41,792 nucleotides of DNA from Candidatus Woesearchaeota archaeon (GTDB lineage Archaea > Nanobdellota > Nanobdellia > SCGC-AAA011-G17 > JACPIM01), in NCBI GenBank assembly GCA_964432435.1, contig CAYSNL010000004.1:1-41792 (forward strand). The letters are read 5' to 3'. Below, piece by piece: positions 15,396-41,752 of this stretch; the first letter of the stretch is position 1, and every line of letters begins with the position of its first letter. The notes beneath the pieces were generated by a model that worked only from the letters and a program-made list of their open reading frames with translations, searched no databases and was not told the DNA's origin. Made by a program: the position numbers and the translations under genes.

Positions 15396-15464
15396 CGGTA
15401 TTAGTCAAATAATCCTCCGAAAGTTTTTTAAATAATGAAACTGTATAGATTTATAGATTTTAAA

Positions 15465-15471: not shown

Positions 15472-15476
15472 TGTTA

Positions 15477-15908: not shown

Positions 15909-15913
15909 TAAAT

Positions 15914-16360: not shown

Positions 16361-16375
16361 AGGAGGTTTAAATTT

Positions 16376-16816
16376 ATGGAACAAAATAATAAAACACTTT
16401 TGATTGCAGTATTAATAATTTTGTTAGCTTTGGTAGCTTTTAACTTTAATAAGATCAGTGGTAAGGTTGTAGATGATGGAAGTGATGTTAGTGTTGTAGT
16501 TTCTCCTTCATTGGTTACTTTTAGTGGAAATGAAGTCGTGAAACAAGTTACTGTAACCGTTGATACTGGGTCTGTTGGTGTTGATAACCAATTGGATTTA
16601 TATTCTGTAAAAGAAGGATATACTAATAGAGTTGGGAGTGGAGTAAGTGACAAACTATGCGGCACAAAAAGTATTTGTACTGGTGTAATCAGTAAACAAT
16701 TCCTTATCCCTTCAAGCGTTGATACTGGTGACTATTTAATAAGAGTTGAAAGAGATAATCCTTCATACAACTTTAAAGTAGATTCCAACATAATTACTGT
16801 AAATCATGTTGGTTAA
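16376..16816 (+). CDS. Membrane-anchored Ig-like surface protein, array paralog 3
   Basis: N-terminal TM, ISGKVV, VSPSLV..VTVTVDTGSVG, LCGTKSIC and TGDYLIRV. Confidence 0.75.
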   Translation: MEQNNKTLLIAVLIILLALVAFNFNKISGKVVDDGSDVSVVVSPSLVTFSGNEVVKQVTVTVDTGSVGVDNQLDLYSVKEGYTNRVGSGVSDKLCGTKSICTGVISKQFLIPSSVDTGDYLIRVERDNPSYNFKVDSNIITVNHVG

Positions 16817-16834
16817 TTTTTTATTTTTTTTATT

Positions 16835-17236
16835 ATGGAAAATGAATCAAAAATATTATTGGGTGCAATACTTATAATAGTAATAGCTATTTTTTCTTTT
16901 AATTCTAGTATAACTGGTTTTGGTATGAAAAATGTTTATACCTCCACTATAAAAATAAGTCCTAAGGTAGTTCTGAATAATGATAAAATTTTCATTACAG
17001 TATATCCTGGACCAGAAGGGGCAAATAACAATCTTAATTTTTATAATGCTGAAGATGATTTAAGAAAATCCTCGATTGAACTTTGTGGGGGTGATTATAA
17101 GTGTATGGATGAAACTACTGTTAGTTATTGGATTCCTAATGGATGGAAACCAGGAGTTTACCATGTTAAAGTGTACGATTATGACCGAAAGGATTTTATA
17201 ATTGAAGATTTTACAATTAAGAGAGGTGAAATATAA
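16835..17236 (+). CDS. Membrane-anchored Ig-like surface protein, array paralog 4
   Basis: N-terminal TM, ITGFGM, ISPKVV..FITVYPGPEG, LCGGDYKC and WKPGVYHVKV. Confidence 0.75.
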   Translation: MENESKILLGAILIIVIAIFSFNSSITGFGMKNVYTSTIKISPKVVLNNDKIFITVYPGPEGANNNLNFYNAEDDLRKSSIELCGGDYKCMDETTVSYWIPNGWKPGVYHVKVYDYDRKDFIIEDFTIKRGEI

Positions 17237-17709
17237 TGGATGAAAAAAAAGTGATTTTAGTTAGTCTAATTATACTTTTGATTGGTTTTATTAGTTATAA
17301 GTTTGCACCAGATCTTACTGGGCATTCTGTTGGTAATCAAGCGAGTCTAATTTTTATAGATGAAGATAAAGTAATGGAAGGTGGTACTATAAAAGTTACT
17401 ATAAGACCGGGTAGTAAAGGTATAATAAATGAAGGAGCATATCCTACTTCTCCTGTTTATTTAGATTTGTACAGGGTAAGTAGTGTGGGGGATGGTGAGC
17501 GTACTGCCTATAGGTTAAAAGTTTGCAATCATAACAGGTGTAAGAATAAGGTTACAACCTATTTTAGGGTACATTCTAATATAATTTCTGATTTTTCACC
17601 AACACAAAGGTTTTACTTAAGAGGTATTGATGGTAGTACCGGAAATGAAATTAGAGCTTATTTCTTAGTTGAAAACAATGATAAGATAACTTATGATGCT
17701 CATCGTTAA
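17236..17709 (+). CDS. Membrane-anchored Ig-like surface protein, array paralog 5
   Basis: N-terminal TM, LTGHSV, GGTIKVTIRPGSKG, VCNHNRC and RFYLRGID. Confidence 0.72.
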   Translation: MDEKKVILVSLIILLIGFISYKFAPDLTGHSVGNQASLIFIDEDKVMEGGTIKVTIRPGSKGIINEGAYPTSPVYLDLYRVSSVGDGERTAYRLKVCNHNRCKNKVTTYFRVHSNIISDFSPTQRFYLRGIDGSTGNEIRAYFLVENNDKITYDAHR

Positions 17710-22389: not shown

Positions 22390-23934
22390 ATGAATAATAA
22401 ACGTTGGTATATTCTTTTTAGTGTTTTAATTCTTTTAATGGTGATATATGTTTTTGCTGAACAATTACCTGGAAATAGAAATAGTGGTGGTATTGGTTTT
22501 AATTTTACTGTTACCACATATAGAGGTGGTCTAATCAATTGGACTGGTGGTAATGGTGGTCAACAACCAGCTTTAGCAAATAATTCTGAAATAATGGCTG
22601 GAGTGTTAAATCTATCTATAACTCTTGATGTTGCTAATGGTACAACAAATGTTTCTTGGTATATTGCTAATGCGTCTGATGATTCTCAAAAATGGATATT
22701 TATAACTGATTTAAATGTTTCAAATGCAACAGGGTTTATTGGCTATGATTTATCAACAAATCTTGATTTTGCTGCTATAACAAGAGATAACGCAAGAACT
22801 TATAGAATTAGGATAAATGCAACAAACTTATCAACTTATAATGGAAGTCTATACGGATATGGTGGTGCTGGTGGTACAAGTAATGGCAACCAAACGATTA
22901 GGATATTAACTATAAAGATTTATCCAAATCAATTGAATAGAGGGCATAGTAATGGTACTGTTATTCCTAATGGTTATTATAAAAAGGCAGATGGTACTGC
23001 TGTTAATAATATAACTCAATTTGCTAATGTTACTGGAACTGTTAGATTTAATGCTAGTATAGCCGCTGGTAATAATATGACTTCAAACGTAACTTGGTAT
23101 GCAATTAAAGGAGCTACAGAGGTAGTTCTTGGATCAAATCATACGATAGGTGGTACTGACTTGGTATTTGATACAGCTAATGGTTCATTACCTGATGGTT
23201 GGTATAATATAACTTTAGCAGTTACTAATTTAACTAATGGAAGTGGTATTGCAGGAAAAAATTATTTATTTAATATGGCAAATACCAGAAACATAACTAT
23301 CTTAAATATACATATAGATAATATTGCGCCCGCGGTGAGTGTTACAACTAGTGATACAAATAGTGTAGTATACACTAGAGGAGAACAGACTGTTACATGT
23401 GAATATTCAGATCCTACTGGTGGTGCTGGTTTAGTTTCCTCTTCGAGGCAATTAGAATTAGTAAAACCAAATGGTGATGTTATAACTTATACTGATACTG
23501 ATGCGCTAGAACATACATTTAGTGAAACTGATACTGCTTCAACTGGTACATATACAGCCAAATGTAGGGTTACTGATGGGGTAGGCAAAGAAACTGTGGC
23601 AGAAAAAACATTTGATGTATGGGCTAGAGGTGGTGTTTCAAGTGCAACTGCTGCTGGAAAGAAAGCTAAAGCTATAGAAGAAATAGAAGGTGGAGAAGCA
23701 GCTGGAGAAGAGGTTGCACCTACTGGACCAACTGGTGCTGCTGCAGCTGGCGGAGAAGGAGCTGTTCCTAGTGGAGCTGGTACTACCGGTAAAGCCGGCG
23801 CAGGTACAACTGTTGCAGTGATAGTAGGTATAGTAGTAATTGCAGGGGGCATTATTTACTTCCTAGTAAAGGGAAAACCAGGAAAGAAAGGACAAATAAA
23901 ATTCAGTAGAGCTGAATTAATGCCTAAAAGATAA
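22390..23934 (+). CDS. Heavily N-glycosylated cell-surface protein with C-terminal TM anchor
   Basis: Signal peptide; about 25 N-x-S/T sequons in the first ~305 aa; Ig-like ID..AP.V..YT..C.VTD..G domain; Gly/Ala/Thr linker; TM and basic tail. SD GAGGTG upstream. Confidence 0.8.
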   Translation: MNNKRWYILFSVLILLMVIYVFAEQLPGNRNSGGIGFNFTVTTYRGGLINWTGGNGGQQPALANNSEIMAGVLNLSITLDVANGTTNVSWYIANASDDSQKWIFITDLNVSNATGFIGYDLSTNLDFAAITRDNARTYRIRINATNLSTYNGSLYGYGGAGGTSNGNQTIRILTIKIYPNQLNRGHSNGTVIPNGYYKKADGTAVNNITQFANVTGTVRFNASIAAGNNMTSNVTWYAIKGATEVVLGSNHTIGGTDLVFDTANGSLPDGWYNITLAVTNLTNGSGIAGKNYLFNMANTRNITILNIHIDNIAPAVSVTTSDTNSVVYTRGEQTVTCEYSDPTGGAGLVSSSRQLELVKPNGDVITYTDTDALEHTFSETDTASTGTYTAKCRVTDGVGKETVAEKTFDVWARGGVSSATAAGKKAKAIEEIEGGEAAGEEVAPTGPTGAAAAGGEGAVPSGAGTTGKAGAGTTVAVIVGIVVIAGGIIYFLVKGKPGKKGQIKFSRAELMPKR

Positions 23935-24004: not shown

Positions 24005-24547
24005 ATGCAAGAAAGAATTAAAAAAAGAAGATTAATTTTACCAATATTTATAATTATTATAATGTCTTTTAGTATACTAAGTTTTAGTTTTCTTGATAGA
24101 AATTCTAATGAAAAAACAACTAAATACAAAGATAAAAAATTTACTCTTGTAAACAATTTATGGGTTACTTATATTGATGGAAAAGAGCTAGTATTAGTAA
24201 ATGACCCAAATTCCTTAAATGACATAAATCTTGATGGATATAATTTAAAATATGTTAATAAGGTTTATTTATCCAGGGACCCTGAATATAGCCTAAATAA
24301 TGAACTTGGGATATTAAGGAGTAATTTAAATATAATCTTTGTCGATAGCTGTTTTGAAGATTTGGAAGGATGTAAAGACTTGCCGTTAAAGAAATGTGAA
24401 GATGCTACATATAACATTGGTGTTATTGAAATTATCATAGATGATAAAAATTCTGTTTATAAGAATGGATCTTGTTTAAAAATTAATGGAGATTACAACT
24501 TTATATCTAGAGTAACAGATAAAATAATTTTGAATACATTAATATGA
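24005..24547 (+). CDS. Membrane-anchored hypothetical protein (paralog of the next gene)
   Basis: N-terminal TM; PLKKC..IGVIEI, CLKING and RVTDKII motifs shared with 24544..25167. Confidence 0.7.
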   Translation: MQERIKKRRLILPIFIIIIMSFSILSFSFLDRNSNEKTTKYKDKKFTLVNNLWVTYIDGKELVLVNDPNSLNDINLDGYNLKYVNKVYLSRDPEYSLNNELGILRSNLNIIFVDSCFEDLEGCKDLPLKKCEDATYNIGVIEIIIDDKNSVYKNGSCLKINGDYNFISRVTDKIILNTLI

Positions 24548-25167
24548 AAAAAGCTAATTTGAGACAAATTAATATTTTTTTGATAGTTACAATAGTCTTG
24601 TTAGTTATTGGTGGGATTATTCTATATGCTTATCAAAAAGAAAGATATTCTGATGTATTCTTTAATTATAATGGTTTTGATGTACATAAAGTTCTTGATA
24701 GGGGTTATGTTGTGTATAAGATAAGTTTGGTTTCACTAGTCGACAATAAGCTCTATGCTATAGAAAGTAGATATAACCCAAAAGAATTAGAGAAAATACC
24801 CACTAGATTTAATCTAAACGATATTTATGATAAAAAGGCTTTGTTTATTACGATGGATCCTAATGCAACAGGTGTAAGTGTTTTAGCTGCTACTGAAATT
24901 AGTAAAATTACTGGAAATGGCCTTGTATTTAAGTATCCAAAAGAAACCTTTGGCGCACTAATGGGTCCTGTTGAAGGAAAAAATGTGACTATAATAACTT
25001 GTGATAATGTAAACAAAGATATAGGAGTTATCTCTTTTGAAATTGGGGATAAATCCGAGATTTATTCTAAAAACGGTTGTGTAATTGTTGTAGGTAAAAA
25101 TGAGATGGACTTAGTTCGGGTTGCTGATAGATTAATGCTTATTTTATTAGGTATTATGAAACCCTAA
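24544..25167 (+). CDS. Membrane-anchored hypothetical protein (paralog of the previous gene)
   Basis: N-terminal TM; IITC..IGVISF, GCVIVVG and RVADRL motifs; 4-nt overlap with the upstream gene. Confidence 0.7.
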   Translation: MKKANLRQINIFLIVTIVLLVIGGIILYAYQKERYSDVFFNYNGFDVHKVLDRGYVVYKISLVSLVDNKLYAIESRYNPKELEKIPTRFNLNDIYDKKALFITMDPNATGVSVLAATEISKITGNGLVFKYPKETFGALMGPVEGKNVTIITCDNVNKDIGVISFEIGDKSEIYSKNGCVIVVGKNEMDLVRVADRLMLILLGIMKP

Positions 25168-28858: not shown

Positions 28859-31150
28859 TTAAGCTGTTACAGCGGCAACTACAGGTTCATTTATTGTACC
28901 TGTAACCTTAACTTCCTTTCCACTTAGTTTACCTGCGTAGTTTTCGTAGTTTGCAAGTACTTTAGCTGCCATTCTTGTTTCTGTTGCTTCATAACCTGCT
29001 ACTAATAATGCTACATGTTCTCCATTCTTAGCCATTTGAATAATAGCTTCTCCTGGAGATAACTGTTGCCTTGCACTTTCACAAGTCATTAGACCTGCTG
29101 CAGCAACTGCATTGTTAGCACATGGTCCACCAACTAAGATTAAATCGTAGTTAGCTTCTGAACCAGAAACTTCTGTATCTAGTCTTGTGTTGATTGAAAT
29201 ATCTGCAGGTATGTATGAAACTGCACCACCAGATACTTTTGTTGTTGGTCCTTTAACTACAACGTTAGCTTGGACTTCATCAGATGGTATTAACAATACA
29301 ACCTGGTCTGAAGCACCATTTGACTTAGGGTCTTTTATAATAATGCCATAAGAGGTTCTATGGTCTTCATCTTTACTACCAATGTTATGATGTGTTGTTG
29401 CTAACAATCTATTAAACCAAGTTACTTCGCTTACTTCTTCAGTAGAAGCTGTAGCACCTAATGATGTTACTAAATCACTAGCCAAGGTCCAGTTTGTTCT
29501 GATTACATCTTCCTCATTACCTAATTCTGATGATGAATCACCTGTAGTGTTCACTACTATTTGTACCTTGTTCTGGTCTAAATCTATAGTTGAAACGTTA
29601 CTTAAGCTAAAGATGACATTACTTTGCTTAGTGTCTCCAAAGTTAAGTTCTGCAAATTTAGCTGATCCTAACAAATCTGGTGTAATGTTTCCTGCATAAA
29701 CTACATTTGGGTTCTTATTTGAGTCTTTGTAGAAAAGCATAGCGCTTTTCTCATTTTTAACATCAACATAGAACTGTAACCAGATCTGACTTGTTTTAGC
29801 GTCTGACGGACTATTTGAAGAATTTGTGAAATTAAGGTCAGCTGTTTTGATCACAAATCTATCTGTTCCTGGGGCACTAATATCTATTACTTTAGCACTT
29901 GTTAAACTACCTAGTGCTCCAGATTTAGCAGTATCAATACTAGACGAATACTTCATGGTTACTTCCAAATAATCGTTGTCAGGCACAGTTAAGCTATCTA
30001 AACAAAGAGATACATATTCATTTGGTAGATCATAACATTCTCCAATACCTGGCGGATTATCTGTATCATCGTCTTTTGTAAATGCATTTTGAATACCTAG
30101 TGTAGGACCTGCTGGCGATTGTTGTGGAAATTCAGATTGTGTAGAGTTTATAGTTGTTGATGCGTCGGCTCTTAAATTAGCTATTGTCCATTCCCAATCT
30201 GGATCGTTTTCATCTTCTCCAACATAAGCATCTCCATCTTCATAAGTGGCTTGTGAATCTTCACCAATTATTAATGATGCTGATCTTTCTGACATTTCAT
30301 TTGTGTAGAAAGTATCATCATTGCTTATTTCAATGCCATTAACAGTTCTAGTGGATCCTGACGAAATAGTTTCTCTTGTTCCATCAACATCTACTAAAAT
30401 AGAACCACCTTCACCTACATTTTGCAAGGTAATTTTTTTACCATTAACTGTAACTACATCACCTACGTCCATGAAATACTCGCCACCTACATAAGCTGTA
30501 AACTTTGTGGCTGAGCCAACACTTGTAATTTTTAAAGTTTTTCCAAGAAACTTTAGTTCTAATGGATCTGATGCTGTTGCTTTAGATACGTTTATTTTGT
30601 CATCAAACGCATAGTAATACTTAATTCCTTTTGATACTGCTTCTAAGAATACATTACTTTCATAGTCATCATCTCCACTTGTAAGACTCGTTTCTACTGA
30701 TGGTGATGCTTTAGATAAAACTAACTCATCATGCATATCATAGTCTTTACCTTGGAAATTTATTTGTGTGTCTTGAAAACTTTCTATGTCTGTATCATCT
30801 AGGCTCCAATCAAAACCAAAGCCTGTTGTATTAGCAATAGCTTTGCCTAGTGGAATATCTTCTGTTACTCCACCTGAGACTTGTAACCCACCACCACCAG
30901 ATGTTACTGGAGTTTTTGCATCAAATTGTAGTTTTGTAGCAATGTTTACCGCTCCTAATGTATCAGAAGCTGCTGCATTTGCACCAACTACTATTGTTGT
31001 TGCGTCATTAAAAACTCCCTCTTTGCTGATAAATGGCTGTGGGTAAGTTGCTAAGTCTTGAGCTACTGCACCAGCCATTGTTGCACCTAACATTGCAACA
31101 CCTGCGCCGATAGCGGCCATTCTTTTAATGGCTTTTCTAAATCTTTGCAT
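28859..31150 (-). CDS. S-layer protein (Methanococcales-type S_layer_N/S_layer_C architecture)
   Basis: Signal with basic N-region KAIKRMAAI; N-terminal DLATYPQPF..IVVGANAAASD; C-terminal LILVGGPCAN..ALLVAGY...T..AA.VL; several N-x-S/T sequons; strong SD GGAGGTG at 31159-31165. Confidence 0.92.
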   Translation of the reverse strand: MQRFRKAIKRMAAIGAGVAMLGATMAGAVAQDLATYPQPFISKEGVFNDATTIVVGANAAASDTLGAVNIATKLQFDAKTPVTSGGGGLQVSGGVTEDIPLGKAIANTTGFGFDWSLDDTDIESFQDTQINFQGKDYDMHDELVLSKASPSVETSLTSGDDDYESNVFLEAVSKGIKYYYAFDDKINVSKATASDPLELKFLGKTLKITSVGSATKFTAYVGGEYFMDVGDVVTVNGKKITLQNVGEGGSILVDVDGTRETISSGSTRTVNGIEISNDDTFYTNEMSERSASLIIGEDSQATYEDGDAYVGEDENDPDWEWTIANLRADASTTINSTQSEFPQQSPAGPTLGIQNAFTKDDDTDNPPGIGECYDLPNEYVSLCLDSLTVPDNDYLEVTMKYSSSIDTAKSGALGSLTSAKVIDISAPGTDRFVIKTADLNFTNSSNSPSDAKTSQIWLQFYVDVKNEKSAMLFYKDSNKNPNVVYAGNITPDLLGSAKFAELNFGDTKQSNVIFSLSNVSTIDLDQNKVQIVVNTTGDSSSELGNEEDVIRTNWTLASDLVTSLGATASTEEVSEVTWFNRLLATTHHNIGSKDEDHRTSYGIIIKDPKSNGASDQVVLLIPSDEVQANVVVKGPTTKVSGGAVSYIPADISINTRLDTEVSGSEANYDLILVGGPCANNAVAAAGLMTCESARQQLSPGEAIIQMAKNGEHVALLVAGYEATETRMAAKVLANYENYAGKLSGKEVKVTGTINEPVVAAVTA

Positions 31151-31492: not shown

Positions 31493-31792
31493 TTATCTAA
31501 AAATGCCTCTTTTTAAAGTACATTCATTTAATGCTTCTTTAGGAAATAAAAAAACATTGCTTGGATTTGAATAACAACTAAACCCATTATTATCAAAAAC
31601 GGTGTATAGTAAATTGTTTGGGTCTAATTCTTTACAATACTTATTTCCTACCTCCTCTAAACAACGAGTATCTATCCCATCTTTTTCATAATGATAATAA
31701 TAGTATCCTATAACTAAAAAAGCAATAAATCCTATTAATAAAAACCATATAATTTTTGGGATAGGTTCAGTATTAATATACCCTTCATTCAT
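31493..31792 (-). CDS. Single-pass membrane protein with a small Cys-containing domain
   Basis: One TM helix then C-x7-C..C..C. The ATG at 31792 overlaps the TGA of the methyltransferase (ATGA coupling). Confidence 0.65.
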   Translation of the reverse strand: MNEGYINTEPIPKIIWFLLIGFIAFLVIGYYYYHYEKDGIDTRCLEEVGNKYCKELDPNNLLYTVFDNNGFSCYSNPSNVFLFPKEALNECTLKRGIFR

Positions 31793-32556
31793 TTTTTTCT
31801 CCCTATAATAGTCCATGAATTATTATTTACTCTATAAATCTCTATATCTTTTAATTTATTATTATTAAATATCTCTAAAACTTCTTCTTTTGTCCAATAA
31901 TTTGCAATTTTTGGTATTAATTGGTCTAATATAATATTATGAATCACCCAAAATCTAAACTTTGAAAGCTGGATAAAATACTCTTTTTGTTGCTTGATTA
32001 GATGAAGATAAGAATAAAGGATTATGGCCAATATGCCACTTAATACATTAACTAAAAATACAGGTAAACGAGAGGTAATTTTTCTTATTGGATTAACATA
32101 TCTTACAATCCATTCATTACCTTCATAGGCATAAACCCAGATTAAAACCAAGCCACCTTTTTTTGTTGCTTCAACTAGGGAATTTATTGCTCTTTCTGGG
32201 TATTCTAGATGTTGTATGACTCCTATAGCAATAGAAATATCAAATTCTTCTTTATAAGTCAGGTCATAAATTGAGTTATATCCAACACTGCAGGTTTTAA
32301 AATCATGTAAATTATTCTTTGCTATATTTACTGTATTTTTATCATAATCAAAAGCAACTACTTTTTTAGCACCATATTTTAATATCCAATAAGTATTTCT
32401 TCCATTCCCACAACCTGCATCTAAGATTGTTTTATTAATAAAATCTTTCTTAGCTAATGGATATACCCATTTATTAAATTGTTCTTCATGTTCTGGCATG
32501 ATGGAATTAAATTTACTCCATTGCTTCCCAAATCTATCAGACGAACCCTTATCTAT
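31789..32556 (-). CDS. Class I SAM-dependent methyltransferase (start uncertain: ATG 32499 or ATA 32556)
   Basis: ILDAGCGNGR, VVAFD, FDISIAIGVIQHL and KGG.VLIWVY motifs. The frame stays open upstream of 32499 (DKGSSDRFGKQWSKF). Confidence 0.85.
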   Translation of the reverse strand: MDKGSSDRFGKQWSKFNSIMPEHEEQFNKWVYPLAKKDFINKTILDAGCGNGRNTYWILKYGAKKVVAFDYDKNTVNIAKNNLHDFKTCSVGYNSIYDLTYKEEFDISIAIGVIQHLEYPERAINSLVEATKKGGLVLIWVYAYEGNEWIVRYVNPIRKITSRLPVFLVNVLSGILAIILYSYLHLIKQQKEYFIQLSKFRFWVIHNIILDQLIPKIANYWTKEEVLEIFNNNKLKDIEIYRVNNNSWTIIGRKK

Positions 32557-32747
32557 TTTATTAACAATAAAGACATCACCCCTAGTATTGTTGAAAACAA
32601 AAAAATAAAAATGATTGGAAAAAGCTCTAAATTATTTTCATTTCCTTTTATTTTATCATAAATAATACAAATAAGGAGATATAAACTAGCTATGCTTAAG
32701 ATTCCTAAAAAAAATAATCCGTTTGTATTAGTAACGCTTCCTACCAT
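32553..32747 (-). CDS. Small two-TM membrane protein (64 aa)
   Basis: Two hydrophobic helices; TAATG coupling with the upstream ORF. Confidence 0.55.
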   Translation of the reverse strand: MVGSVTNTNGLFFLGILSIASLYLLICIIYDKIKGNENNLELFPIIFIFLFSTILGVMSLLLIK

Positions 32748-32920
32748 TATGGACTCCCTATTATCTTATATTTAATTGGAACATTATAATTATACGATAT
32801 TATGATAGCAAATATAATATCAATAATTAACATCAAAACTAATAATAAATATATTTTCTTGTCTTCATTATTAAAGATGAAATATATTGACTTGCCTATT
32901 TTGTTAATTATTTTTTCCAT
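32747..32920 (-). CDS. Small single-TM membrane protein
   Basis: SD AAGGAGTG upstream of the ATG at 32920; one hydrophobic helix. Confidence 0.5.
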   Translation of the reverse strand: MEKIINKIGKSIYFIFNNEDKKIYLLLVLMLIIDIIFAIIISYNYNVPIKYKIIGSP

Positions 32921-32922
32921 TC

Positions 32923-33185
32923 TCAACACTCCTTTTTAATAATTCCGGCCATCTGATTCCCACCTAAACCTAGATCTACCTATGCCCTCTGTAAAAGAGT
33001 TAATCCGTTCAAAGTCATATTCTTCCTTATCACATTATTATGGATAATCTATAACCATCATTCCATTCTTGAGTAATTTCCATATTTCCAAATCCTTTTC
33101 TTGTTTTATCAAATTCTCTAAACTTATTATGGTATCTTTCTATGTTATTAGTATTAATCTCGTCTTTAAAACCTTTACTTTTTAA
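32923..33185 (-). pseudogene. Decayed C-terminal fragment of an IS6/IS240-like DDE transposase
   Basis: KGFKDEINTNNIERYHNKFREFDKTRKGF..GYRL, then after a frameshift near 33043 HNNVIRKNMTLNGLT..QRA*VDLGLG. This matches the NN.IER.H..F..R..RGF / HN.IR.H..L.G.TP..AG.DL pattern; in-frame TAG at 32982-32980. Confidence 0.7.
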
Positions 33186-33192
33186 ATAATCA

Positions 33193-33750
33193 TTAAATTG
33201 ATTCTTGTGGTTGTACACATAATGTAATTTTAGCTGTTATTTGTGGTGAAACACTAACTGTAGCTGAGCCTGTAATTGATGCTTGATTTAGTGATTCACA
33301 ATTTGTACTTGGGTTGTAGATTGGTAATGGATTAGTGCCATGAGCTGTAAATTCAAGCTTATATTTTTTATTTTGGAATGTTCTTCTTAATATATCCCTA
33401 ATAAAACTTGGTTTTGAATCACATAACTCCCCTTGTGAAGTTATCGGTTCGCAGCTAGATGGTCTTGCAGGTGAATCTTGGCAACAATTTTTCATAAATT
33501 TACATTGGTCAGACTCTATTTTAGCTGAATTATAGCATTCCACTATTTTTTTAGCTATTGTTGAACCATCTTCTGTATTTGATCTTAAAATAGCATTTAA
33601 CATATTGCTCGCTTGAATACTTTGCCTTTGTAATTCTACTGAGTCAGTTTTAGGCACTATGAGGAATTTTATAGCCATTAAAATAACAAATACTAGTATA
33701 AGGACTATTACCATAAGCCCTATTATCTCTATTTGGGCTTTTTTAGTCAA
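33193..33750 (-). CDS. Type IV pilin-like protein (class III signal peptide)
   Basis: MTKKA/QIEIIGLMVIVLIL.. followed by a Cys-rich head domain. Confidence 0.75.
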   Translation of the reverse strand: MTKKAQIEIIGLMVIVLILVFVILMAIKFLIVPKTDSVELQRQSIQASNMLNAILRSNTEDGSTIAKKIVECYNSAKIESDQCKFMKNCCQDSPARPSSCEPITSQGELCDSKPSFIRDILRRTFQNKKYKLEFTAHGTNPLPIYNPSTNCESLNQASITGSATVSVSPQITAKITLCVQPQESI

Positions 33751-34303
33751 GTTTAAACACCTCTATACTTAAAATGCCAATTTTATATTCGTTTTTTAAA
33801 GGATAATAGACTGAAATGGGGTTTTTTCTTACTTCTTTATTTGTATTTGATGAAGGAATACCTGGGTCATAGATTGTGAACTTTTGACACTTGTTGTCTG
33901 GATAATCATTACTAAAATGACTAGCTATGTCACCTATTGTACAATCTGTCTTTTTGTCTTCCTCTTTGACTGGCGGGTATATTATTTCTAAAATAACTTT
34001 TTTATCATTTCCAAAAAAACCACTATAATACTCTTTGTAATTTTGGTCGTTAGAATTTAAAATATTTGCCAAGGAGAATATCTTAATTGAGTTAATAACT
34101 CCTGTTTCATGAGTTAATTCTGCCATTGAAGAAACAGAATCAGTTAATATTATCGCATCTACATCTGTAAATCTTTCACCAGTTTCTTTTAATCCTTTAT
34201 TTAGGAAAGAATAATAAATAACCATCCCTATAAAGATTATTACTATTAGTATTAATAATACAAAAATCATTTCCATAAACTGGACTTGGGCTCTTTTTTT
34301 CAT
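33743..34303 (-). CDS. Type IV pilin-like protein (class III signal peptide)
   Basis: MKKRA/QVQFMEMIFVLLIL..; Cys pair in the head; C-terminal Y.IGILSIEV strand. Confidence 0.75.
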   Translation of the reverse strand: MKKRAQVQFMEMIFVLLILIVIIFIGMVIYYSFLNKGLKETGERFTDVDAIILTDSVSSMAELTHETGVINSIKIFSLANILNSNDQNYKEYYSGFFGNDKKVILEIIYPPVKEEDKKTDCTIGDIASHFSNDYPDNKCQKFTIYDPGIPSSNTNKEVRKNPISVYYPLKNEYKIGILSIEVFKLD

Positions 34304-35262
34304 ATTAACAACCTTGTAGTTTCAGTACCTTTATATAAAACAGGACAATTAGTTGTTTTTAGGGCTTCATTATCTGTTTTAATATTCTTGGCAGCATCTA
34401 TACTTTGGGTTGTGCTTAGAATTTTTAGTTGTTCTTCGAAATTATAGGAACTATCACAGCCTTCTGCTTTTTCTAGTCTTCCTAGGGTATCTTGGTAAAT
34501 TTCAACAATGTTGCTTATCCTTTGTTTTGCTAGTCCCTTAATGATACAGTTAAACTGATCGTAATCTGCTGAAAAAATAGCTGCATAAACCATTGTGTCA
34601 CCCCAAACTGGAAGTTCATTTCCTTGTTTAAATTTAACTTTTGGGTTTTCACTGTCTAAACCAATAAACTGAACTGTTTTAACATTATTCGGTAAATTTG
34701 CAGGCGGGTTGCTATCAAAATAAACTAATACTGTTTTATCTAAAAAATTTGGTAAAGCAGTGACCTTTTGTGGGTTAAATCTTTTTGGGAATTTATCAAA
34801 AAAATACTTAGGTAAATCTCCTGTTGGGTTAACAAAATAAAACCTGGTGTTTTGGTCTGCTACAAAGTATAGATTATCAATTTTAAATGGATAATTCCAG
34901 GCTAAAGTCCAAGCTTGAACTGATTTTCCTTCGATATCAAACGGCACGAAAATTAATTTTTTTGTTTCTCTTTTATCTTTTTCATTTTTTGGTATCTTTA
35001 AATAAATCTTTTTATCTGTATTATCGCACTCTATTCTAATCTTTGAGTCTTCTGAAAATTGGATTACTTTTTCTGAATTTGATGCTAGGGCGAAAGAAGC
35101 CAAGTTTTTTTCTAAAACCAATATGTTTTCTGTTTTTGTTAATTTTTCTGAAAAACCTAATAAATCCTTTCCAAAACTAAAAAAGAAAACCAAGATGATA
35201 GCACCAGCAATTATAGTAAACATAATAGTAAAAACAAAAATAGATACTCCTCTTTTTTCCAT
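34300..35262 (-). CDS. Large pilin-like protein (class III signal peptide)
   Basis: MEKRG/VSIFVFTIMFTIIAGAIILVFF; WTLAWNYPFKIDNLYF motif; C-terminal Cys cluster. Confidence 0.7.
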   Translation of the reverse strand: MEKRGVSIFVFTIMFTIIAGAIILVFFFSFGKDLLGFSEKLTKTENILVLEKNLASFALASNSEKVIQFSEDSKIRIECDNTDKKIYLKIPKNEKDKRETKKLIFVPFDIEGKSVQAWTLAWNYPFKIDNLYFVADQNTRFYFVNPTGDLPKYFFDKFPKRFNPQKVTALPNFLDKTVLVYFDSNPPANLPNNVKTVQFIGLDSENPKVKFKQGNELPVWGDTMVYAAIFSADYDQFNCIIKGLAKQRISNIVEIYQDTLGRLEKAEGCDSSYNFEEQLKILSTTQSIDAAKNIKTDNEALKTTNCPVLYKGTETTRLLI

Positions 35263-35285
35263 AAAATTAATATTGAATTAGAAAG

Positions 35286-35294
35286 TTTATATAA
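35286..35294 (-). promoter_or_regulatory. Putative internal TATA box for the 35262-33193 pilin genes
   Basis: TTATATAAA on the minus strand about 25-30 nt upstream of the ATG at 35262. Confidence 0.45.
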
Positions 35295-35302
35295 TTTTTT
35301 GT

Positions 35303-35839
35303 TTATATTTTTTCTATTAGTACTTCATTTCCTTTACTTTCTAGCCTAATATTTAATTTATATCTGGAAGCTGCTAAATCAATGCATAAAGGATTACTAG
35401 GAGCAACTGTAAATTTGCTGTTTATATTTGCTTTTTCTGGCAAAGAAGCTGGATTTTCTCCTTTTGTCTTTTTTTCACTATATTTCCAAAAGACAACGTT
35501 ACTAGTACCTACTGAACCTAATAGTTTGCTCTTAAAGCTTGGATCATTACATTTACCTGTTAAACTACCAAAATCTTTATTTTGGGAATCAATAAAACAA
35601 AAACATTCTACGGAGTTTGGAAATGTGAAAGTGAATTTATTACTTGAGCCTTCTTCTAGATTATAAAAAGTTGTAACATCCTCATTTATTCTTTTGGCTA
35701 TATCTGCTATCTGAGCAAAATTAGCTCTTTCACTTAAATCATAATAAATTTTAATACCAAAAACAAGAACCATAGCTGCTACAACTATGGCAAAGATAAA
35801 AATGAATGGTTCACCGAAAATTTGGGCTCTTTTTTTCAT
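35303..35839 (-). CDS. Type IV pilin-like protein (class III signal peptide)
   Basis: True start at 35839: MKKRA/QIFGEPFIFIFAIVVAAMVLVFG; CFCF motif; C-terminal LESKG..VLI. Confidence 0.75.
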   Translation of the reverse strand: MKKRAQIFGEPFIFIFAIVVAAMVLVFGIKIYYDLSERANFAQIADIAKRINEDVTTFYNLEEGSSNKFTFTFPNSVECFCFIDSQNKDFGSLTGKCNDPSFKSKLLGSVGTSNVVFWKYSEKKTKGENPASLPEKANINSKFTVAPSNPLCIDLAASRYKLNIRLESKGNEVLIEKI

Positions 35840-35855
35840 GTTCTTGTTAAATTTT

Positions 35856-36122
35856 TTAGATATAAATCTTATCATGATGATCGAAATCATCAAAATAAAT
35901 AGTATCAGTATTTTTATTATATTGAAAAATTAAAACAAAGTGTCCGAGATGGACACTTTTTGAATCCTTCATAGAATATCTTAAATTTTTGTAATGATCT
36001 ATATCGATACAGTTTACTATTTCATTAATCTTTTTTATTAGTTGCTCATATAACCTTTTATCTTTTTTGGACAGTTTTTTAAGTATTTCTTGTAGATTCT
36101 CGCTTAGTTCAAAATTATGCAT
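35856..36122 (-). CDS. relE: RelE/ParE-superfamily (RelE/StbE-like) toxin
   Basis: LKKL.KKD..YEQL.KKI.EI, HYKNLRY, VHLGHFVLIF and FDDFDHHDKIY motifs; directly downstream of the antitoxin. Confidence 0.82.
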   Translation of the reverse strand: MHNFELSENLQEILKKLSKKDKRLYEQLIKKINEIVNCIDIDHYKNLRYSMKDSKSVHLGHFVLIFQYNKNTDTIYFDDFDHHDKIYI

Positions 36123-36130
36123 ATTGCCCC

Positions 36131-36367
36131 TTAACTCGTAGCTTTCCTTAATTCTTCTACTGAACTAAATTTAATATACTTGCCTTTTCTTATTTTTTCA
36201 AGCTTCTCCAAATATTCTGGCCTTAATTCTGGTTCCAATACTTCTTCCTCGTATTTTTCAATAATAATGCCTATTGCTTCTGATTTATCTTTTAAACCAT
36301 ATTTTGCTTTAACAATGTTTAAAATCCTATTCTTGTTTTCATCTAAATTTATCAATGCTTGTACCAT
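36131..36367 (-). CDS. Antitoxin (DUF2683-like)
   Basis: MVQALINLDE..NRILNIVKAKYGLKDKSEAI, LEPELRPEY and a C-terminal F.SVEELR; 78 aa, upstream of the toxin. Confidence 0.78.
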   Translation of the reverse strand: MVQALINLDENKNRILNIVKAKYGLKDKSEAIGIIIEKYEEEVLEPELRPEYLEKLEKIRKGKYIKFSSVEELRKATS

Positions 36368-36388
36368 ATTATTTCACCTTATTTTAAC

Positions 36389-36409
36389 TAAGCTAGACTT
36401 ATTTATAAA
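36389..36409 (-). promoter_or_regulatory. TA promoter: TATA (36402-36409) with adjacent inverted repeat TAAG-N5-CTTA (36389-36401)
   Basis: Minus strand reads GCAAAG-TTTATAAA-TAAGTCTAGCTTA-G..AAGGTGAAATAAT-ATG, giving BRE/TATA, a palindrome and an SD. Confidence 0.55.
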
Positions 36410-36430
36410 CTTTGCTATGCTTTTAAAATA

Positions 36431-39400
36431 TTAAGGATAAACTGTAAATGTAGATGGTGGATTATTAAACTCATCTGTACACTTTATTATATAAATTTGA
36501 TTTATTAAAGTAGCTTCATGGGTTATTGAATTTGGATTTGACATATCTGAACCAGAACCAAAGCTAAAGTCACTATCTGAATATTGACATGTTGAAGGTT
36601 CATCTGTTGTTATATGTAACGTGCCTGATTCTTTGTAAACTGAGACTAATTTGGGTGGTTCTTTATCGGCTTTTATAGAAAATTCTATGATATCTTTAGC
36701 CTCATTACCAGCTTTATCTACACAAGTTATATAGAACTTGTAGTTCCCTTCTTTTAAAGGAGATAAAGGTTGTGTACTTTCTGTTGATAAAGTATTTACG
36801 AAAGCAGGCATATTAGTGAATGGCATATTTTCTTGCTGTGAATAACCACAAATTGCCCTCCCTGATTCTGCTCCTTTTGATGTAGTAACTGATAAAACTA
36901 TATCACTGCCTGTTTTTAGTTCGCCTTGTGGTGACTTATCTACTATTTCCAATTTATTAGTTGAAATTAAAGTGTAAGGGTAGCCTTGAATGTTCTTGTT
37001 TCCTGCTTTATCTTTACATCTGAAATAATAAACATTTCTTATATTCCCTGGTGTTGGTGTTGGTTCTGATGAAGTTGATTCAGATGATGATGTAGACTGA
37101 GCTTTTTCTAAATTTAAAGTTGTTGAACATTGATAAGCCATATTAGACGAGATATCAATTCCTGAAGAAGCACAGTTAAATTGGTTTTGCATTGCATCAA
37201 AATCTATGTCTCTATTTGGTTCCCATTTACAAACCGCTGGTTCATTAACAAATATTGAAATAGGTGCTTCATTTATATTTTCTTGCATATACGTACCTGA
37301 AGTTATTGAAGTGCTCGTAATTTCTGGAGGGGATAAATCTGGACCTGCTTCAATTGCAAATTTAATGTAATAATCTTTACCATTTGCATTACCTGTTGAA
37401 TCTTTACATCTTAGATAAATAGTGTATTGGCCTCCATTTGTTAATTGCAAAGCTTGTTGGGTTGCTAAATCTGAAGGTAACATGAAGGTCATATTATGTT
37501 TTATTAAGAAATAGCTTGATCCAAAATCAAATTCCATTGCATCAAATGCATCTTTTGAATTTACTTTTTCAGAAGGTTTGGTTGTGAACTTGCATTGGGC
37601 AGCTTCATCTGTTATTAATCCTAATTTTACTGGTGTGAATGGTGGTATTTTATTTACAACTGTGAAACCATTATTTGAATCTTCCTGGATTTGATAAGCT
37701 TTCATATAATCTTTGTCTGGTCTTATTCTTGGTGAGGCAGCATCATTTGGTTGAATATTTGTACAAATTTCATGATCTGTTCCAGCATTTACAATTGAAC
37801 ATAATTTTCCTAATGATTTACATCTATATTCTGAACACGGTTTTGTTTCATCATTACATTTTTCACAATCAGAACCGCCATCTGGCGCTTCCCATGCCTT
37901 ACAAATAAACCCTACTTTTCCTTTTTGAGTATCTGCAGCTAACCAATCAACTAATTCATAAATTGTCCAGATCCAAGCTATTGCATTTGCTATACCCAAA
38001 GCATAACCTGCGTATGTTGGTGCAGGTGCTGCTGTGGCTGTGCTTGTTATGCTATTTTCTGTTACAACATTATTTCCGGTAACTCTAAATAAATCTTTTG
38101 ATCCTTCAACAGCTGAAATACCTGCAGGAGGAGTTTGAACTGTTGTCGGGGTTAAAATTTTTTGGCTTATTAATGTCTGAGCTTGTGGAGAGTTGATAGA
38201 ATACACACCTGGTGTAACACCTAAAGAAGGATTTACAATGGAAGGATTTACAATAACCTGATCACCACTAACTATAGCTGTTGGATTTATTGATGTATAA
38301 GTTTGCGTCTCTGTAAATTTAAATCCTCCTTTTATAAGTTCGCTTTGTGTAAATACTGTACGTGTTGGAATTGTCTGTCTCGCTGCAAAAGTTTGTGGTA
38401 GGGTAGTTAATTTCCCAAATCCTGCTGATTGTAACGAGCTTGCCATTGATGCTCTTCCAGCACCAGCAACACCACCAATACCGGCAAATGGTGCTATCAA
38501 AGTCATTGGACCAAGTAAAAATCCACCTGCCAATCCTGAAAGGCTGTTGGAAGCTAGTCCTATCAAACTGGTACCCCCAATTATAGTTAAGGGTAAAGCT
38601 GATTTTTTAAAGAAATCAGAAAATCCTGGTTTTTTAGGACCACCACCTGTTTTTGGTGGTTTTTCTAGAGCATATTTCAATAAATTTGGTCTTGCCCTTT
38701 CCATTAATTTTTCTCTAATTCTATCTGGAATTGCCAAAGCACCTTTAGGACCTTCTGCTTTTACATCAAAACCACCTTCTGTAAACACACCAACATAATT
38801 GAAGTAAGCACCACAATCTCCTATTGATCTACAAACAGAATGTGCTGCTGTAAATGCATCATCTGTTAAACATTGAGGATTATAGGTAACTTTCCAAGAA
38901 CTTTTACCTAATATATGATCCCAACCTGTTCTTGTAAATCCAACTTCACAATCAACATTAGCTTGAGAACAAATATCATTGCCTACTGAATCACCAGTAT
39001 AAACTCCACCCCCTTGGTTGGTAGGATTAGATGTACCTAAATTTAAATTTTGATTTCCTCTGATTTGTGGTGTATCTGCTGGTGAACCTGACGGTTGGCC
39101 GGGTGTTGCTGGTGTATTTATGATCGGTTGTTGATTTGGTTGGTTTGTAATTACTGGATTAGGATTCGGGTTAACTACCTGAGCGCCTGTTATTTCTAAA
39201 ATAGCACTACCCGTTGGATTATTTGTTGTTGATTGTCTGGATGAAATTAAATTATTATCAGCCCAAAATCTTAATCCCGGCTTTACTAAAGGAACACAAA
39301 TGCCTCCTTTATTTGAGATCCCGGAATTGAGGAAAGAACAATCTCTCGTAGAAATATCTTCACAACAAGATTGGACTTGTGATTGGGAAGATAAAGTATT

Positions 39401-40951
39401 GCATTGCGCGCATGTATCAAACCTATTTTGACGGCAAGCTGCTTCTGAATAACCTGAATCTGAGGATCCGAGATTATTTTTAGAAGGATCAAAAATATTA
39501 CCTAAAGGAGAAGATGAAAATGGAAGTTGAGGCAAATTCTTTGTAATTTCAAGAAATAAAGATGTTCCTTCGCCTGTAGTTGATTGATCATTTGAATACG
39601 ATTGGGTGCAAAGCTCTTCCCTAAAATCCTTACATGGTTCAATTATTTGTTCACCATTAATACAAGAAGCCCTAAAATGACGTGAACCTGCTCTATCTTG
39701 TGGGGCCCCGTATTCATCTGGGCCTATTGGACCATCATAAAGACACCAAGACTCGCCTAATTCCTTGCTGCCACCAGAGGCATCTGGAGAATTATTATCT
39801 TTTGTGGTGTCTTTACAATTAAGATCCTCGCAAATAAATTCACCATCTTTTTCCCCACAGAGAGTACCTTGAGTATAATCACAGTTTCCACAATTTTCAT
39901 CGTTTGGAGAAGCTGTACATAAAGAATCAGGATCTTGTAAAACTCTACCTTGACTATAGGATAAGGATTTTTTTTCTTGAGAGTTTCCTAGGAAAACATT
40001 TTCAGGATTATTACCTGAATCAAACCAGTAAACGTCTTCATTATAACAACTTAAATGATGTAATTTTGCAACTTCACATGGAAGTTCGTCATTGCTGCAT
40101 AAATAACCTTCAAAAAAACCCGTTTTTTCTTGTACTTCGGTGTTTTGATTAAAATTGGCTACTGCTTGGCCTGAAATTTGATTACTTTGTGATGTTGAAG
40201 AGGATGTTGGAGAGGTTGTTGTTTCTGTGCTTGATTTCTTGCAAACCGGCTTAGCATTTGGATCAGTGCTTATTTGAACTGGCTCTAAACCAGAGCAACA
40301 CTGTTGATTTAGGGAAGTATCAACAATTGAATTTTTAGGTATGCAATTTTCAAATCCAGGAGATTGCTGTTCTGGAGATGGCGGTAAAGTTTTTTGGATT
40401 CCACATTCTTCTGCTGTTGTAAATGAACATTGACCACGAGCTTGAACACAGCAACCTTTAACCCCTGACTTTACTGAAGATAAACAAGTATATTCATCTT
40501 GAATTCCTGGATCAAATTTCATTTCAACATTTGGATATTGGGAGGTTACTTGTTTACATTTTGTTAATGTTGAAATAAAAGCTTGATTACTTAACTGACA
40601 GCAACCCACTGAACATTGGGCTATTTGAGAACAATCACCTTTTTGGAAAGTTCTTTCTCCGGCGCTTTTACATTCTGAATTAGCAACATTATTAAAACAT
40701 TCACCGGAATCAGAATCAAAACAACAACCTAAACTACAATAGTCGGTGTTTTCACAGGTTGTAAGAGCATGTTGCTTTGTTTGATCACATTGAGACGAAT
40801 CTGTATAAACACAAAAATCTCCTGATGTTGTTTTTTCACAACATTCTTTATTTTCTTGAGCTTTTACTTTTGGTGCAAAGGATGGAAATGATAAAGTAGA
40901 AAAGACTATTAAAAATATCATAAGAATAGCTTTTTGCTTTACCTTGATCAT
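36431..40951 (-). CDS. Giant (1506 aa) secreted Cys-rich surface protein with internal hydrophobic segments and C-terminal Ig-like repeats
   Basis: Signal peptide (..KVKA/QE); GCC-type Cys repeats in the N-terminal half; Ser/Thr/Pro/Gln linkers; a Cys-free central region with two hydrophobic segments; repeated D..PP.I / T.E.A.C / Y.I.C.D..GN Ig-like units. Confidence 0.8.
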   Translation of the reverse strand: MIKVKQKAILMIFLIVFSTLSFPSFAPKVKAQENKECCEKTTSGDFCVYTDSSQCDQTKQHALTTCENTDYCSLGCCFDSDSGECFNNVANSECKSAGERTFQKGDCSQIAQCSVGCCQLSNQAFISTLTKCKQVTSQYPNVEMKFDPGIQDEYTCLSSVKSGVKGCCVQARGQCSFTTAEECGIQKTLPPSPEQQSPGFENCIPKNSIVDTSLNQQCCSGLEPVQISTDPNAKPVCKKSSTETTTSPTSSSTSQSNQISGQAVANFNQNTEVQEKTGFFEGYLCSNDELPCEVAKLHHLSCYNEDVYWFDSGNNPENVFLGNSQEKKSLSYSQGRVLQDPDSLCTASPNDENCGNCDYTQGTLCGEKDGEFICEDLNCKDTTKDNNSPDASGGSKELGESWCLYDGPIGPDEYGAPQDRAGSRHFRASCINGEQIIEPCKDFREELCTQSYSNDQSTTGEGTSLFLEITKNLPQLPFSSSPLGNIFDPSKNNLGSSDSGYSEAACRQNRFDTCAQCNTLSSQSQVQSCCEDISTRDCSFLNSGISNKGGICVPLVKPGLRFWADNNLISSRQSTTNNPTGSAILEITGAQVVNPNPNPVITNQPNQQPIINTPATPGQPSGSPADTPQIRGNQNLNLGTSNPTNQGGGVYTGDSVGNDICSQANVDCEVGFTRTGWDHILGKSSWKVTYNPQCLTDDAFTAAHSVCRSIGDCGAYFNYVGVFTEGGFDVKAEGPKGALAIPDRIREKLMERARPNLLKYALEKPPKTGGGPKKPGFSDFFKKSALPLTIIGGTSLIGLASNSLSGLAGGFLLGPMTLIAPFAGIGGVAGAGRASMASSLQSAGFGKLTTLPQTFAARQTIPTRTVFTQSELIKGGFKFTETQTYTSINPTAIVSGDQVIVNPSIVNPSLGVTPGVYSINSPQAQTLISQKILTPTTVQTPPAGISAVEGSKDLFRVTGNNVVTENSITSTATAAPAPTYAGYALGIANAIAWIWTIYELVDWLAADTQKGKVGFICKAWEAPDGGSDCEKCNDETKPCSEYRCKSLGKLCSIVNAGTDHEICTNIQPNDAASPRIRPDKDYMKAYQIQEDSNNGFTVVNKIPPFTPVKLGLITDEAAQCKFTTKPSEKVNSKDAFDAMEFDFGSSYFLIKHNMTFMLPSDLATQQALQLTNGGQYTIYLRCKDSTGNANGKDYYIKFAIEAGPDLSPPEITSTSITSGTYMQENINEAPISIFVNEPAVCKWEPNRDIDFDAMQNQFNCASSGIDISSNMAYQCSTTLNLEKAQSTSSSESTSSEPTPTPGNIRNVYYFRCKDKAGNKNIQGYPYTLISTNKLEIVDKSPQGELKTGSDIVLSVTTSKGAESGRAICGYSQQENMPFTNMPAFVNTLSTESTQPLSPLKEGNYKFYITCVDKAGNEAKDIIEFSIKADKEPPKLVSVYKESGTLHITTDEPSTCQYSDSDFSFGSGSDMSNPNSITHEATLINQIYIIKCTDEFNNPPSTFTVYP

Positions 40952-41752
40952 TTAAAGTCCTCTTCTTGGCTCGTCTTCAATGGCAAATTGAAATAGGAAT
41001 TCATCATCTGGACTAGGAATATCTTTAATTTTACAAATGTATAATTTATCGGGATATGGTTGAAGTTTTTGACAAATATATGGTTTATTTGTAATTTGAG
41101 TTTTTGCTACATTAAAGAGTAAAGTATCAAAAAAACCAGAGATACATTCTTCATTTACGATATCATGAGATGCTTCAAATAATCTTCCAAATGGTAAGTT
41201 TACATTAGTTGTGAATTTATCGTTTTCTACAAAGTTACCTCCTTTTGATATCCTAATTTTTTGATTTGCTGTTAATGCTGTTGTATCTTCACCTATATCA
41301 ACGTCAATTGATAAGTCACCTATCTCTTGTATATCCCAACCAATTTTTTTAAATGAAAGTATGTTTAAACACTGTGTTTTTAAATCATCTTTTAGTTTTA
41401 AAGAGAGCTCTTTTTCCATATCACTTTCTGTTAATATTCTGGTTCTACAATTTCTTTGATCTTGAATATTCCATCCGCGATAAGAAACTTTATTATTGAG
41501 ATAATTTATGTAAGTACCTTCTGTTGGATTTAAGTAACCACCTTGTAAAGCCATTTCTCTTATTCTTTGATCTCCTTTTTGGATCAAACAGTTTTGTATA
41601 TGTTCTTCTATTGGTGGGAATTCGTCTTGTAAACTTTTTTCAGTAGCTGTCCCAAAATAAACTTTTTCTCTTAAAAATAAAAATAAAGCAATTAGTACAA
41701 TTAATAATATCCCGATTATGGCAAAAGTAGAGACTTGTCCTCTTTTATTCAT
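40952..41752 (-). CDS. Type IV pilin-like protein (class III signal peptide)
   Basis: MNKRG/QVSTFAIIGILLIVLIALFLFL; conserved-looking IQNCL..MALQGGY motif; SD GAGGT upstream; stop abuts the start of the giant gene. Confidence 0.78.
   Translation of the reverse strand: MNKRGQVSTFAIIGILLIVLIALFLFLREKVYFGTATEKSLQDEFPPIEEHIQNCLIQKGDQRIREMALQGGYLNPTEGTYINYLNNKVSYRGWNIQDQRNCRTRILTESDMEKELSLKLKDDLKTQCLNILSFKKIGWDIQEIGDLSIDVDIGEDTTALTANQKIRISKGGNFVENDKFTTNVNLPFGRLFEASHDIVNEECISGFFDTLLFNVAKTQITNKPYICQKLQPYPDKLYICKIKDIPSPDDEFLFQFAIEDEPRRGL

Follow-up and report, generated by a model that had tools for sequence, protein, structure and literature searches.

The 41,792-nucleotide stretch of DNA analysed here ("the window"; contig CAYSNL010000004.1 of assembly GCA_964432435.1, Candidatus Woesearchaeota archaeon) carries on its reverse strand five genes with prepilin-like N-termini, here called A to E, set around a gene for a very large cysteine-rich surface protein, here called the giant. 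The window originates from groundwater metagenomes and has a G+C content of about 30%. Its proteins have their nearest relatives among sequences that carry the label Candidatus Woesearchaeota or Nanoarchaeota. It also encodes the adenosine monophosphate (AMP) salvage set typical of DPANN archaea (e2b2, form III RuBisCO and AMP phosphorylase), glycosylation genes and a Methanococcales-type S-layer protein. The sequencing runs that hold the sequence are of groundwater DNA only and supply no transcript evidence. The genes of the module and its surroundings are as follows (aa, amino acids; a slash in a leader marks the junction with the hydrophobic segment).

A, 40952-41752, reverse strand: 266 aa, MNKRG/QVSTF; prepilin-like, putative partner or adaptor of the giant.
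Giant, 36431-40951, reverse strand: 1506 aa, 66 Cys; surface protein with a Sec-type signal peptide.
DUF2683 antitoxin-like gene, 36131-36367, reverse strand: Pfam DUF2683 E = 4e-10, score 40.2 against a cut-off of 27.
YafQ/ParE-RelE-like toxin gene, 35856-36122, reverse strand: TIGR00053 E = 9e-15 and ParE_toxin E = 6e-4, both under their cut-offs.
B, 35303-35839, reverse strand: 178 aa, MKKRA/QIFGEPF; family motif G/Q..xQPF.YIFAL; Cys81 and Cys152 conserved.
C, 34300-35262, reverse strand: 320 aa, MEKRG/VSIF; family motif KKG/xS..FKWIF; Cys269 and Cys306 conserved; no N-terminal Glu.
D, 33743-34303, reverse strand: 186 aa, MKKRA/QVQFME; invariant Glu at +6.
E, 33193-33750, reverse strand: 185 aa, TTG start, MTKKA/QIEIIG; invariant Glu at +3 and Gly at +6; four conserved Cys.
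S-layer gene, 28859-31150, reverse strand: 763 aa, with a Sec signal and without a membrane anchor; its place at the end of the neighbourhood is conserved.
Two small N-terminally anchored proteins, 24005-25167, forward strand: 180 and 207 aa, 4-Cys.

The ATG of the giant directly abuts the stop codon of A. A preliminary description of this DNA had pointed to five co-directional genes with class III-type leaders around a 1506-aa Cys-rich protein, to the abutting of A and the giant and to downstream overlaps of 4-8 nucleotides (nt). All of these features are present in the sequence, the list of open reading frames (ORFs) giving an overlap of 4 nt for C and D and of 8 nt for D and E. The best start of B is the ATG at 35839; the ORF list runs on to a TTG at 35893, and orthologues open with MKKGQ. 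The putative toxin-antitoxin pair between the giant and B (35856-36367) had gone unmentioned. The toxin scores 55 with TIGR00053 (curated cut-off 87) and 20.8 with ParE_toxin (cut-off 23). The two genes are an inserted mobile pair and lie outside the core of the module.

Each of the five proteins begins with a short basic leader that ends in [KR]-[GA]; directly after it come Q or V and at least 20 hydrophobic residues. An all-frame scan of the window for this motif, with Met starts only, located A to D and missed E, which starts with TTG; the only look-alikes were a Sec signal peptide and a SpoIIM protein. Conservation of the motif was gauged in orthologues drawn from about 35 species-level genomes. 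Of 41 genes of the A family, 38 have G, A or S next to the last basic residue and 37 have Q in the position after that. Most orthologues of B, D and E likewise keep the [KR]-[GAS]/Q junction, and C keeps its own version (KKG/xS..FKWIF). Since the scan gives few look-alikes and the junction is kept across species, the pattern in the five genes is not due to chance. D has an invariant Glu at residue 11 (+6) and E at residue 8 (+3); none is found in A or C.

Profile-profile comparison between the families with hhalign aligns the first 35 to 58 residues only. The five proteins therefore share an N-terminal module placed on unrelated heads, as had been proposed from the sequence alone. Paired conserved Cys residues are kept in every head. 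The AlphaFold2 model of A (23 sequences; predicted local distance difference test score, pLDDT, 87) consists of a 28-residue helix (residues 3 to 30), a short linker and an alpha/beta head made of three helix-plus-three-strand units. The models Pilin_N (PF07790), Class_IIIsignal (PF04021) and arch_flag_Nterm gave nothing at E ≤ 1 for A to E and nothing at E ≤ 0.05 for ten orthologues. Profiles of B to E gave nothing significant against PDB and Pfam, with one archaeal pilin N-domain at E = 2.7, and the E profile search reaches the same lineage only. Two matches of E were rejected, one to DUF7288 (7e-4, under the cut-off) and a weak one to BasB (E = 0.03); neither was reproduced in orthologues. 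At the level of sequence, the N-termini carry the prepilin signature, and homology to a named pilin family is not found. The term "pilin-like" used in the preliminary description thus holds for the N-terminal signature and fails for likeness of the heads to a known pilin, A having no match in PDB and B to E no profile match.

Gene order was compared in 7 protein-index neighbourhoods, 35 species-representative loci and 2 further loci, using iterated hidden Markov models (HMMs). Homologues (30 of A, 72 of the giant) come only from metagenomes and from metagenome-assembled genomes (MAGs) of Woesearchaeota and Nanoarchaeota. The recurrent order is PCNA, then at some distance an optional A′, a first giant (giant1, present as 0-3 paralogs), A, a second giant (giant2, the orthologue group of the giant in the window), B, C, D, E, the S-layer gene and two small anchored proteins. 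In 15 loci, the window included, B-C-D-E stand in this fixed order with the S-layer gene after them; most of the remaining loci stop at a contig edge. The genes meet at junctions of -4 to a few nt, as in translational coupling, with 4-nt-type overlaps in B-C-D-E, and wherever the starts have been correctly called the gap from A to the giant is -4 to +13 nt. The five genes thus form a conserved, translationally coupled prepilin-like set whose order and N-terminal motif are kept in relatives, and the conserved co-occurrence of A, giant and B to E that the preliminary description had asked for recurs across Woesearchaeota and Nanoarchaeota genomes.

The S-layer gene, whose adjacency the preliminary description had missed, comes after E in each of the 15 loci long enough to include it, and the spacer between the two is constant at 235-310 nt in 12 loci. 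The protein (28859-31150) matches S_layer_C (PF05124; E = 7.5e-15, 55.5 bits, cut-off 23.9) and TIGR01564 (42.2 bits, cut-off 25). A C-terminal transmembrane (TM) anchor was found in none of ten orthologues. The window itself is an exception in spacing, in that an insertion of about 2 kb (31493-33218, reverse strand) splits E from the S-layer gene. A-giant-B-C-D-E, with the S-layer gene after it, may well be a cell-surface operon found throughout the woesearchaeal lineage, and the region would be its core. The adjoining S-layer gene suggests a device built into or through the S-layer.

Within the insertion lie a gene for a class I methyltransferase (31789-32499), three ORFs for small membrane proteins and one ORF of 62 aa that overlaps the 3′ end of E. 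In relatives (L005, L007, L015, L037 and others) the two small anchored proteins directly follow the S-layer gene; in the window they lie 4 kb away on the opposite strand, a sign of local rearrangement. Insertions recur at the spot after giant2, a hot spot within an otherwise tight operon. This spot holds the YafQ-like pair in the window, PIN_2/RHH in L004, MNT/HEPN in L002 and L003, and other small ORFs elsewhere.

The giant opens with a Sec-type signal. Its N-terminal ectodomain, from CCEKT onwards, holds knottin-like GCC repeats and a beta-rich domain; a Gly-rich hydrophobic segment (786-831), a Ser/Thr/Pro-rich insert, an amphipathic segment (983-1001) and a C-domain also belong to the layout. 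As we read the sequence, the C-domain begins with C..W.AP.GG.DC..CN...CSEY.C.SLG and continues with four immunoglobulin (Ig)-like repeats, each apparently ending in Y.h.C.D..GN. Pfam matches this repeat motif only in the third repeat, by short matches to Y_Y_Y, Big_13 and DUF4625 that are under the cut-offs. AlphaFold2 modelling of residues 31-750 gave two confident parts, namely four beta-hairpin/helix GCC modules and the beta-rich domain. A Foldseek search of this N-terminal part against PDB gave no fold match, local likeness being solely to cystine-knot (knottin) toxins over 35-39 residues. By sequence, the giant has no significant match in PDB. Neither a PilY1/PilC beta-propeller nor a von Willebrand factor A (vWA) domain was found in the giant by Pfam, by PDB sequence search or by the fold search of its N-terminal part. 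Every paralog has the Sec-type signal, and a framework of about 57-69 Cys is highly conserved among them. The Sec signal, the roughly 66 Cys, the knottin-like modules and the Ig-like repeats are as expected of an extracellular adhesin, and the giant is a large Sec-exported non-pilin located inside an operon of the minor-pilin type.

The two groups of giants differ in the segment ahead of the C-domain. The upstream paralogs (giant1) have a strong TM helix just before it (Kyte-Doolittle 2.3-3.5), and a second, Gly-zipper-rich helix precedes the TM helix; the resulting TM hairpin would leave both large domains outside. This hydrophobic hairpin was absent from the preliminary description. In the giant2 group the TM segment is replaced by a conserved amphipathic motif, N..AWIWTIY.L.D (Kyte-Doolittle 1.0-1.9), which may form a helix for docking in place of one that spans the membrane. 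Residues 786-831 of the window protein are of borderline hydrophobicity (1.68).

We note that in one relative (L006, 9177-23496 of a 1.36-Mb contig) two genes encode the giant in halves, an N-half of 569 aa and a C-half of 708 aa that has a signal of its own. N-x-S/T sequons are strongly depleted in the module, with 2 in the giant against 17.8 expected and 0 in A to E against about 9. Elsewhere in the window, the S-layer protein has 9 (8.2 expected) and a 514-aa protein (22390-23934) has 25 (7.8 expected). The depletion is common to the closest relatives (L001, L002) and not to distant ones.

An exhaustive search with the A profile returned 8,754 cluster representatives at E ≤ 1e-3, 6,133 at E ≤ 1e-10 and 462 at E ≤ 1e-30. 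Among the best 150 representatives, 46 have lengths of 670-1350 aa, the A module taking up residues ~1-260, and so are long enough to be fusions. Eight long representatives were retrieved. All eight begin with a KRG/Q or KKA/Q leader and all run from the A head into block 2 and the C-domain of the giant (BLASTP E 1e-16 to 1e-28). The N-terminal helix is the sole hydrophobic segment in seven of them; P0277 has an N-terminal extension with two more. The named carriers are Woesearchaeota and Nanoarchaeota MAGs. A and the giant also duplicate together as a cassette (L005, L006, L022, L030 and L038). Gene fusion and cassette behaviour are strong evidence that A and the giant are one functional unit, and the functional tie between the giant and a pilin-like protein suggested by the preliminary description is borne out in this form. 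The predicted anchor of this unit is the prepilin-type helix of A, and the pair would work as a split "giant modular pilin".

L006 contains four A-like genes, two of which each precede an unrelated signal-bearing protein of 570-630 aa; this suggests that A-type pilins can partner different cargo. A gene for prolipoprotein diacylglyceryl transferase (LGT), unexpected in an archaeon, lies beside A-giant fusions on two unrelated contigs (L043, 5638-6417; L045, 8744-9511).

Several known systems offer partial parallels. The type IVa minor-pilin/PilY1 operon fimU-pilVWXY1E of P. aeruginosa likewise combines about five dissimilar pilin-like genes with one Sec-exported non-pilin of more than 1000 aa, stands apart from the ATPase and platform genes and includes one pilin that lacks the N-terminal Glu. 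In contrast to that operon, there is no homology of sequence or fold here, the giant is Cys-rich with internal hydrophobic segments and lacks a vWA domain or beta-propeller, and the host is an archaeon with an S-layer (its gene being part of the gene order) and no secretin. The modular pilins PilB and PilC of Streptococcus sanguinis resemble the relatives in which the A module is fused to an ectodomain of about 800-1100 aa. They differ from the window in that the genes here are separate, the module is far larger, there is no homology and incorporation into a filament is unproven.

Among archaeal systems, the Epd pili of Methanococcus (type IV filament, TFF, "system 1") share the [KR]-G/Q junction, a Glu a few residues in, and the combination of several minor pilins with large adhesin-like proteins; Epd pilins have Gln at +1. 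Unlike Epd, the present proteins do not match PF04021 or PF07790, have unrelated heads, and have no adjacent eppA, ATPase or two-platform genes. The pseudopilins GspG-K of the type II secretion system (T2SS) are also five co-transcribed pilin-like proteins of varied size, the largest without Glu; they differ from A to E in that there is no homology, no secretin and no GspE/F nearby. The cap pilins GspK and PilX lack the N-terminal Glu. ArlF/ArlG and the S-layer-like proteins of TFF loci are comparable as pilin-like, N-terminally anchored proteins tied to the S-layer, with an S-layer or S-layer-like gene in the locus. The present locus differs in having no archaellum genes and no sequence similarity, and the gene next to it seems to encode the main S-layer protein (S_layer_C family).

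By analogy with these systems, we propose that the locus encodes a pilin-based display module in which A to E are processed and bundled through their helices and A presents the giant adhesin at the cell surface. We put the probability of this reading at about 0.5. A class III signal peptidase of the EppA/PibD type, encoded elsewhere, would remove the short leader. The exposed hydrophobic helices of A to E would then bundle into a small heteromeric pilin assembly, either a minor-pilin priming or tip complex or a short pseudopilus, extended maybe by an ATPase and platform of the type IV pilus (T4P) kind. A, Glu-less like the cap pilins, would hold the giant disulfide-rich protein, whose knottin-like N-terminal modules and Ig-like stalk would be presented at or beyond the S-layer as a surface for contact or adhesion. 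The upstream giant paralogs, mostly without an A of their own, would be held by their own TM hairpin. Processing, bundling, fibre extension and a role in host contact are thus proposed by analogy, upon an anatomy and a genetic linkage that are observed.

A number of results weigh against this proposal. PilB/FlaI, TadC/FlaJ and A24 peptidase genes are found neither in the window nor within 10 kb on either side in 42 related loci. The window was searched through its ORF lists, by Pfam on membrane and ATP-binding ORFs and with the P-loop pattern GxxG[SAT]GK[TS] over every ORF (no hit), and these agree with the earlier statement that it encodes no T4P ATPase, TadC or prepilin peptidase. In the 42 loci, proteins with the P-loop motif or multiple TM segments were run through Pfam. 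Foldseek of the A model against PDB gave no neighbour (best E 0.03, TM-score < 0.2), and in the model the helix stops at residue 30, short of the head, into which it would run in a classical pilin. No Pfam or NCBIfam pilin model matches A to E, the giant or ten orthologues. The fusion genes stand alone in three neighbourhoods, without machinery and twice beside the LGT gene. The internal hydrophobic segments of the giant family fit a membrane-anchored protein better than the tip subunit of a long fibre. Finally, one preprint states that T4P components are missing from DPANN genomes. Because no machinery was found and no head matches a known pilin by sequence, filament formation is inferred only. 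The minor-pilin/tip-adhesin module of the preliminary description therefore survives in part: the conserved prepilin set, the tie between A and the giant and the Glu-less A stand, and the pilus and its role in host attachment are conjectural, no linked machinery having been found. The multi-TM candidates put through Pfam are a Na/H exchanger, a DUF2238 protein and a 268-aa ORF without a Pfam match.

Reports on DPANN archaea are mixed on this point. Loci with FlaI/TadC and unrecognisable pilins are reported in some DPANN (PMC6393860), and two T4P systems are reported in Nanoarchaeota proper. Archaeal TFF "system 1" is reported in some DPANN (bioRxiv 10.64898/2026.04.22.720090). Archaeal T4P loci are described with minor pilins, large adhesins, S-layer-like proteins and many Cys (PMC4858521), and adhesins, S-layer-like proteins and Cys-rich components recur in accounts of archaeal TFF loci (PMC4858521; bioRxiv 10.64898/2026.04.22.720090). 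The nearest description is of a DPANN-specific secreted family "often next to S-layer-like proteins" (PMC6393860), which may or may not correspond to a gene of this locus. The putative MoxR/vWA/DUF4350 secretion system, considered by way of that family, was dropped, no component being present. The literature searched holds no description of the A-giant-B-E module.

The same genes could instead serve to anchor the S-layer and form no filament. The processed A to E would then stay in the membrane, in the manner of ArlF/ArlG and the Sulfolobus bindosome, and together with the giants would tether or organise an S-layer protein that has no anchor of its own. The invariable position and nearly constant spacing of the S-layer gene after E, and the missing C-terminal anchor in its orthologues, fit this well. 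So do the housekeeping context (PCNA and ribosomal genes) of a module that is near-universal in the lineage, the genuine TM hairpin in giant paralogs, the lack of an assembly ATPase nearby and the precedent of S-layer-like proteins in archaeal TFF loci. The adjacency may, however, merely reflect clustering of envelope genes, and the fusion forms stand alone, away from S-layer genes. The invariant Glu of D and E is expected for helix-to-helix packing in a pilin polymer, and there is no sequence link to ArlF/G or Bas beyond the single rejected BasB match. We regard S-layer anchoring as possible, if on the unlikely side.

A plainer explanation leaves type IV pilin biology out altogether: the envelope proteins would be unrelated to one another, and their KRG-Q N-termini would serve as type II membrane anchors that are never cleaved. 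Positive-inside residues ahead of a TM helix are common, and the failure of pilin family models, the lack of a pilin-like fold match for A and the absence of linked machinery would all follow. It is hard to reconcile with Gly/Ala at -1 and Gln at +1 being kept in five unrelated families across deep divergence, or with a charged Glu conserved inside the start of a hydrophobic helix, and other N-terminally anchored proteins of the window lack the motif. Ordinary signal anchors are thus improbable. Very unlikely, too, is a T2SS-like piston of A to E pushing giants, S-layer subunits or both outward through the envelope: five pilin-like genes of graded size, one of them large and Glu-less, do resemble GspG-K and candidate cargo (the giant and the S-layer protein) is encoded in the same cluster, but there is no outer membrane or secretin to cross, both cargo proteins have their own Sec signals, no ATPase is linked, and the A-giant fusions argue for permanent attachment over transient export.

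Two further features of the window deserve mention. Five tandem paralogous small proteins of 133-157 aa (15435-17709, forward strand) each have a hydrophobic helix at the N-terminus, then an [LI][ST]G motif and a domain that contains Cys and is judged beta-rich from its sequence. The first has a weak Pfam Pilin_N match (E = 0.009, under the cut-off), and none of the five has the KRG/Q junction. A 244-aa protein with 18 Cys and no Pfam match (8075-8809, forward strand), encoded between HAD hydrolase and RuBisCO genes, was picked up by the S-layer HMM; its N-terminal G-K-x-L/I-T-V/L segment resembles, by eye, that of the S-layer protein.

In groundwater and sediments, few uncultured DPANN archaea are as abundant as Woesearchaeota, and we know of no account of how they touch their partners. 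The display module proposed here defines a concrete gene set that is conserved, syntenic and tied to the S-layer, and the fusions link a pilin-type anchor to a giant adhesin. The A family is very large and has no family model. On a more speculative view, which we hold to be unlikely as a whole, A, the giant and their fused relatives make up a very large family of "giant modular pilins" (more than 6,000 representatives at 50% identity, no Pfam model). With B to E they would form the principal cell-contact organelle of Woesearchaeota-type DPANN, a helix bundle that passes a disulfide-rich, non-glycosylated adhesin through the S-layer to the host. Giant modular pilins might be assembled by machinery unlike that of canonical archaeal TFF loci, or without a dedicated ATPase. 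The module bears on the disputed use of type IV filament biology by these DPANN and gives experimenters specific targets for proteomics, immuno-cryo-electron tomography and heterologous processing assays.

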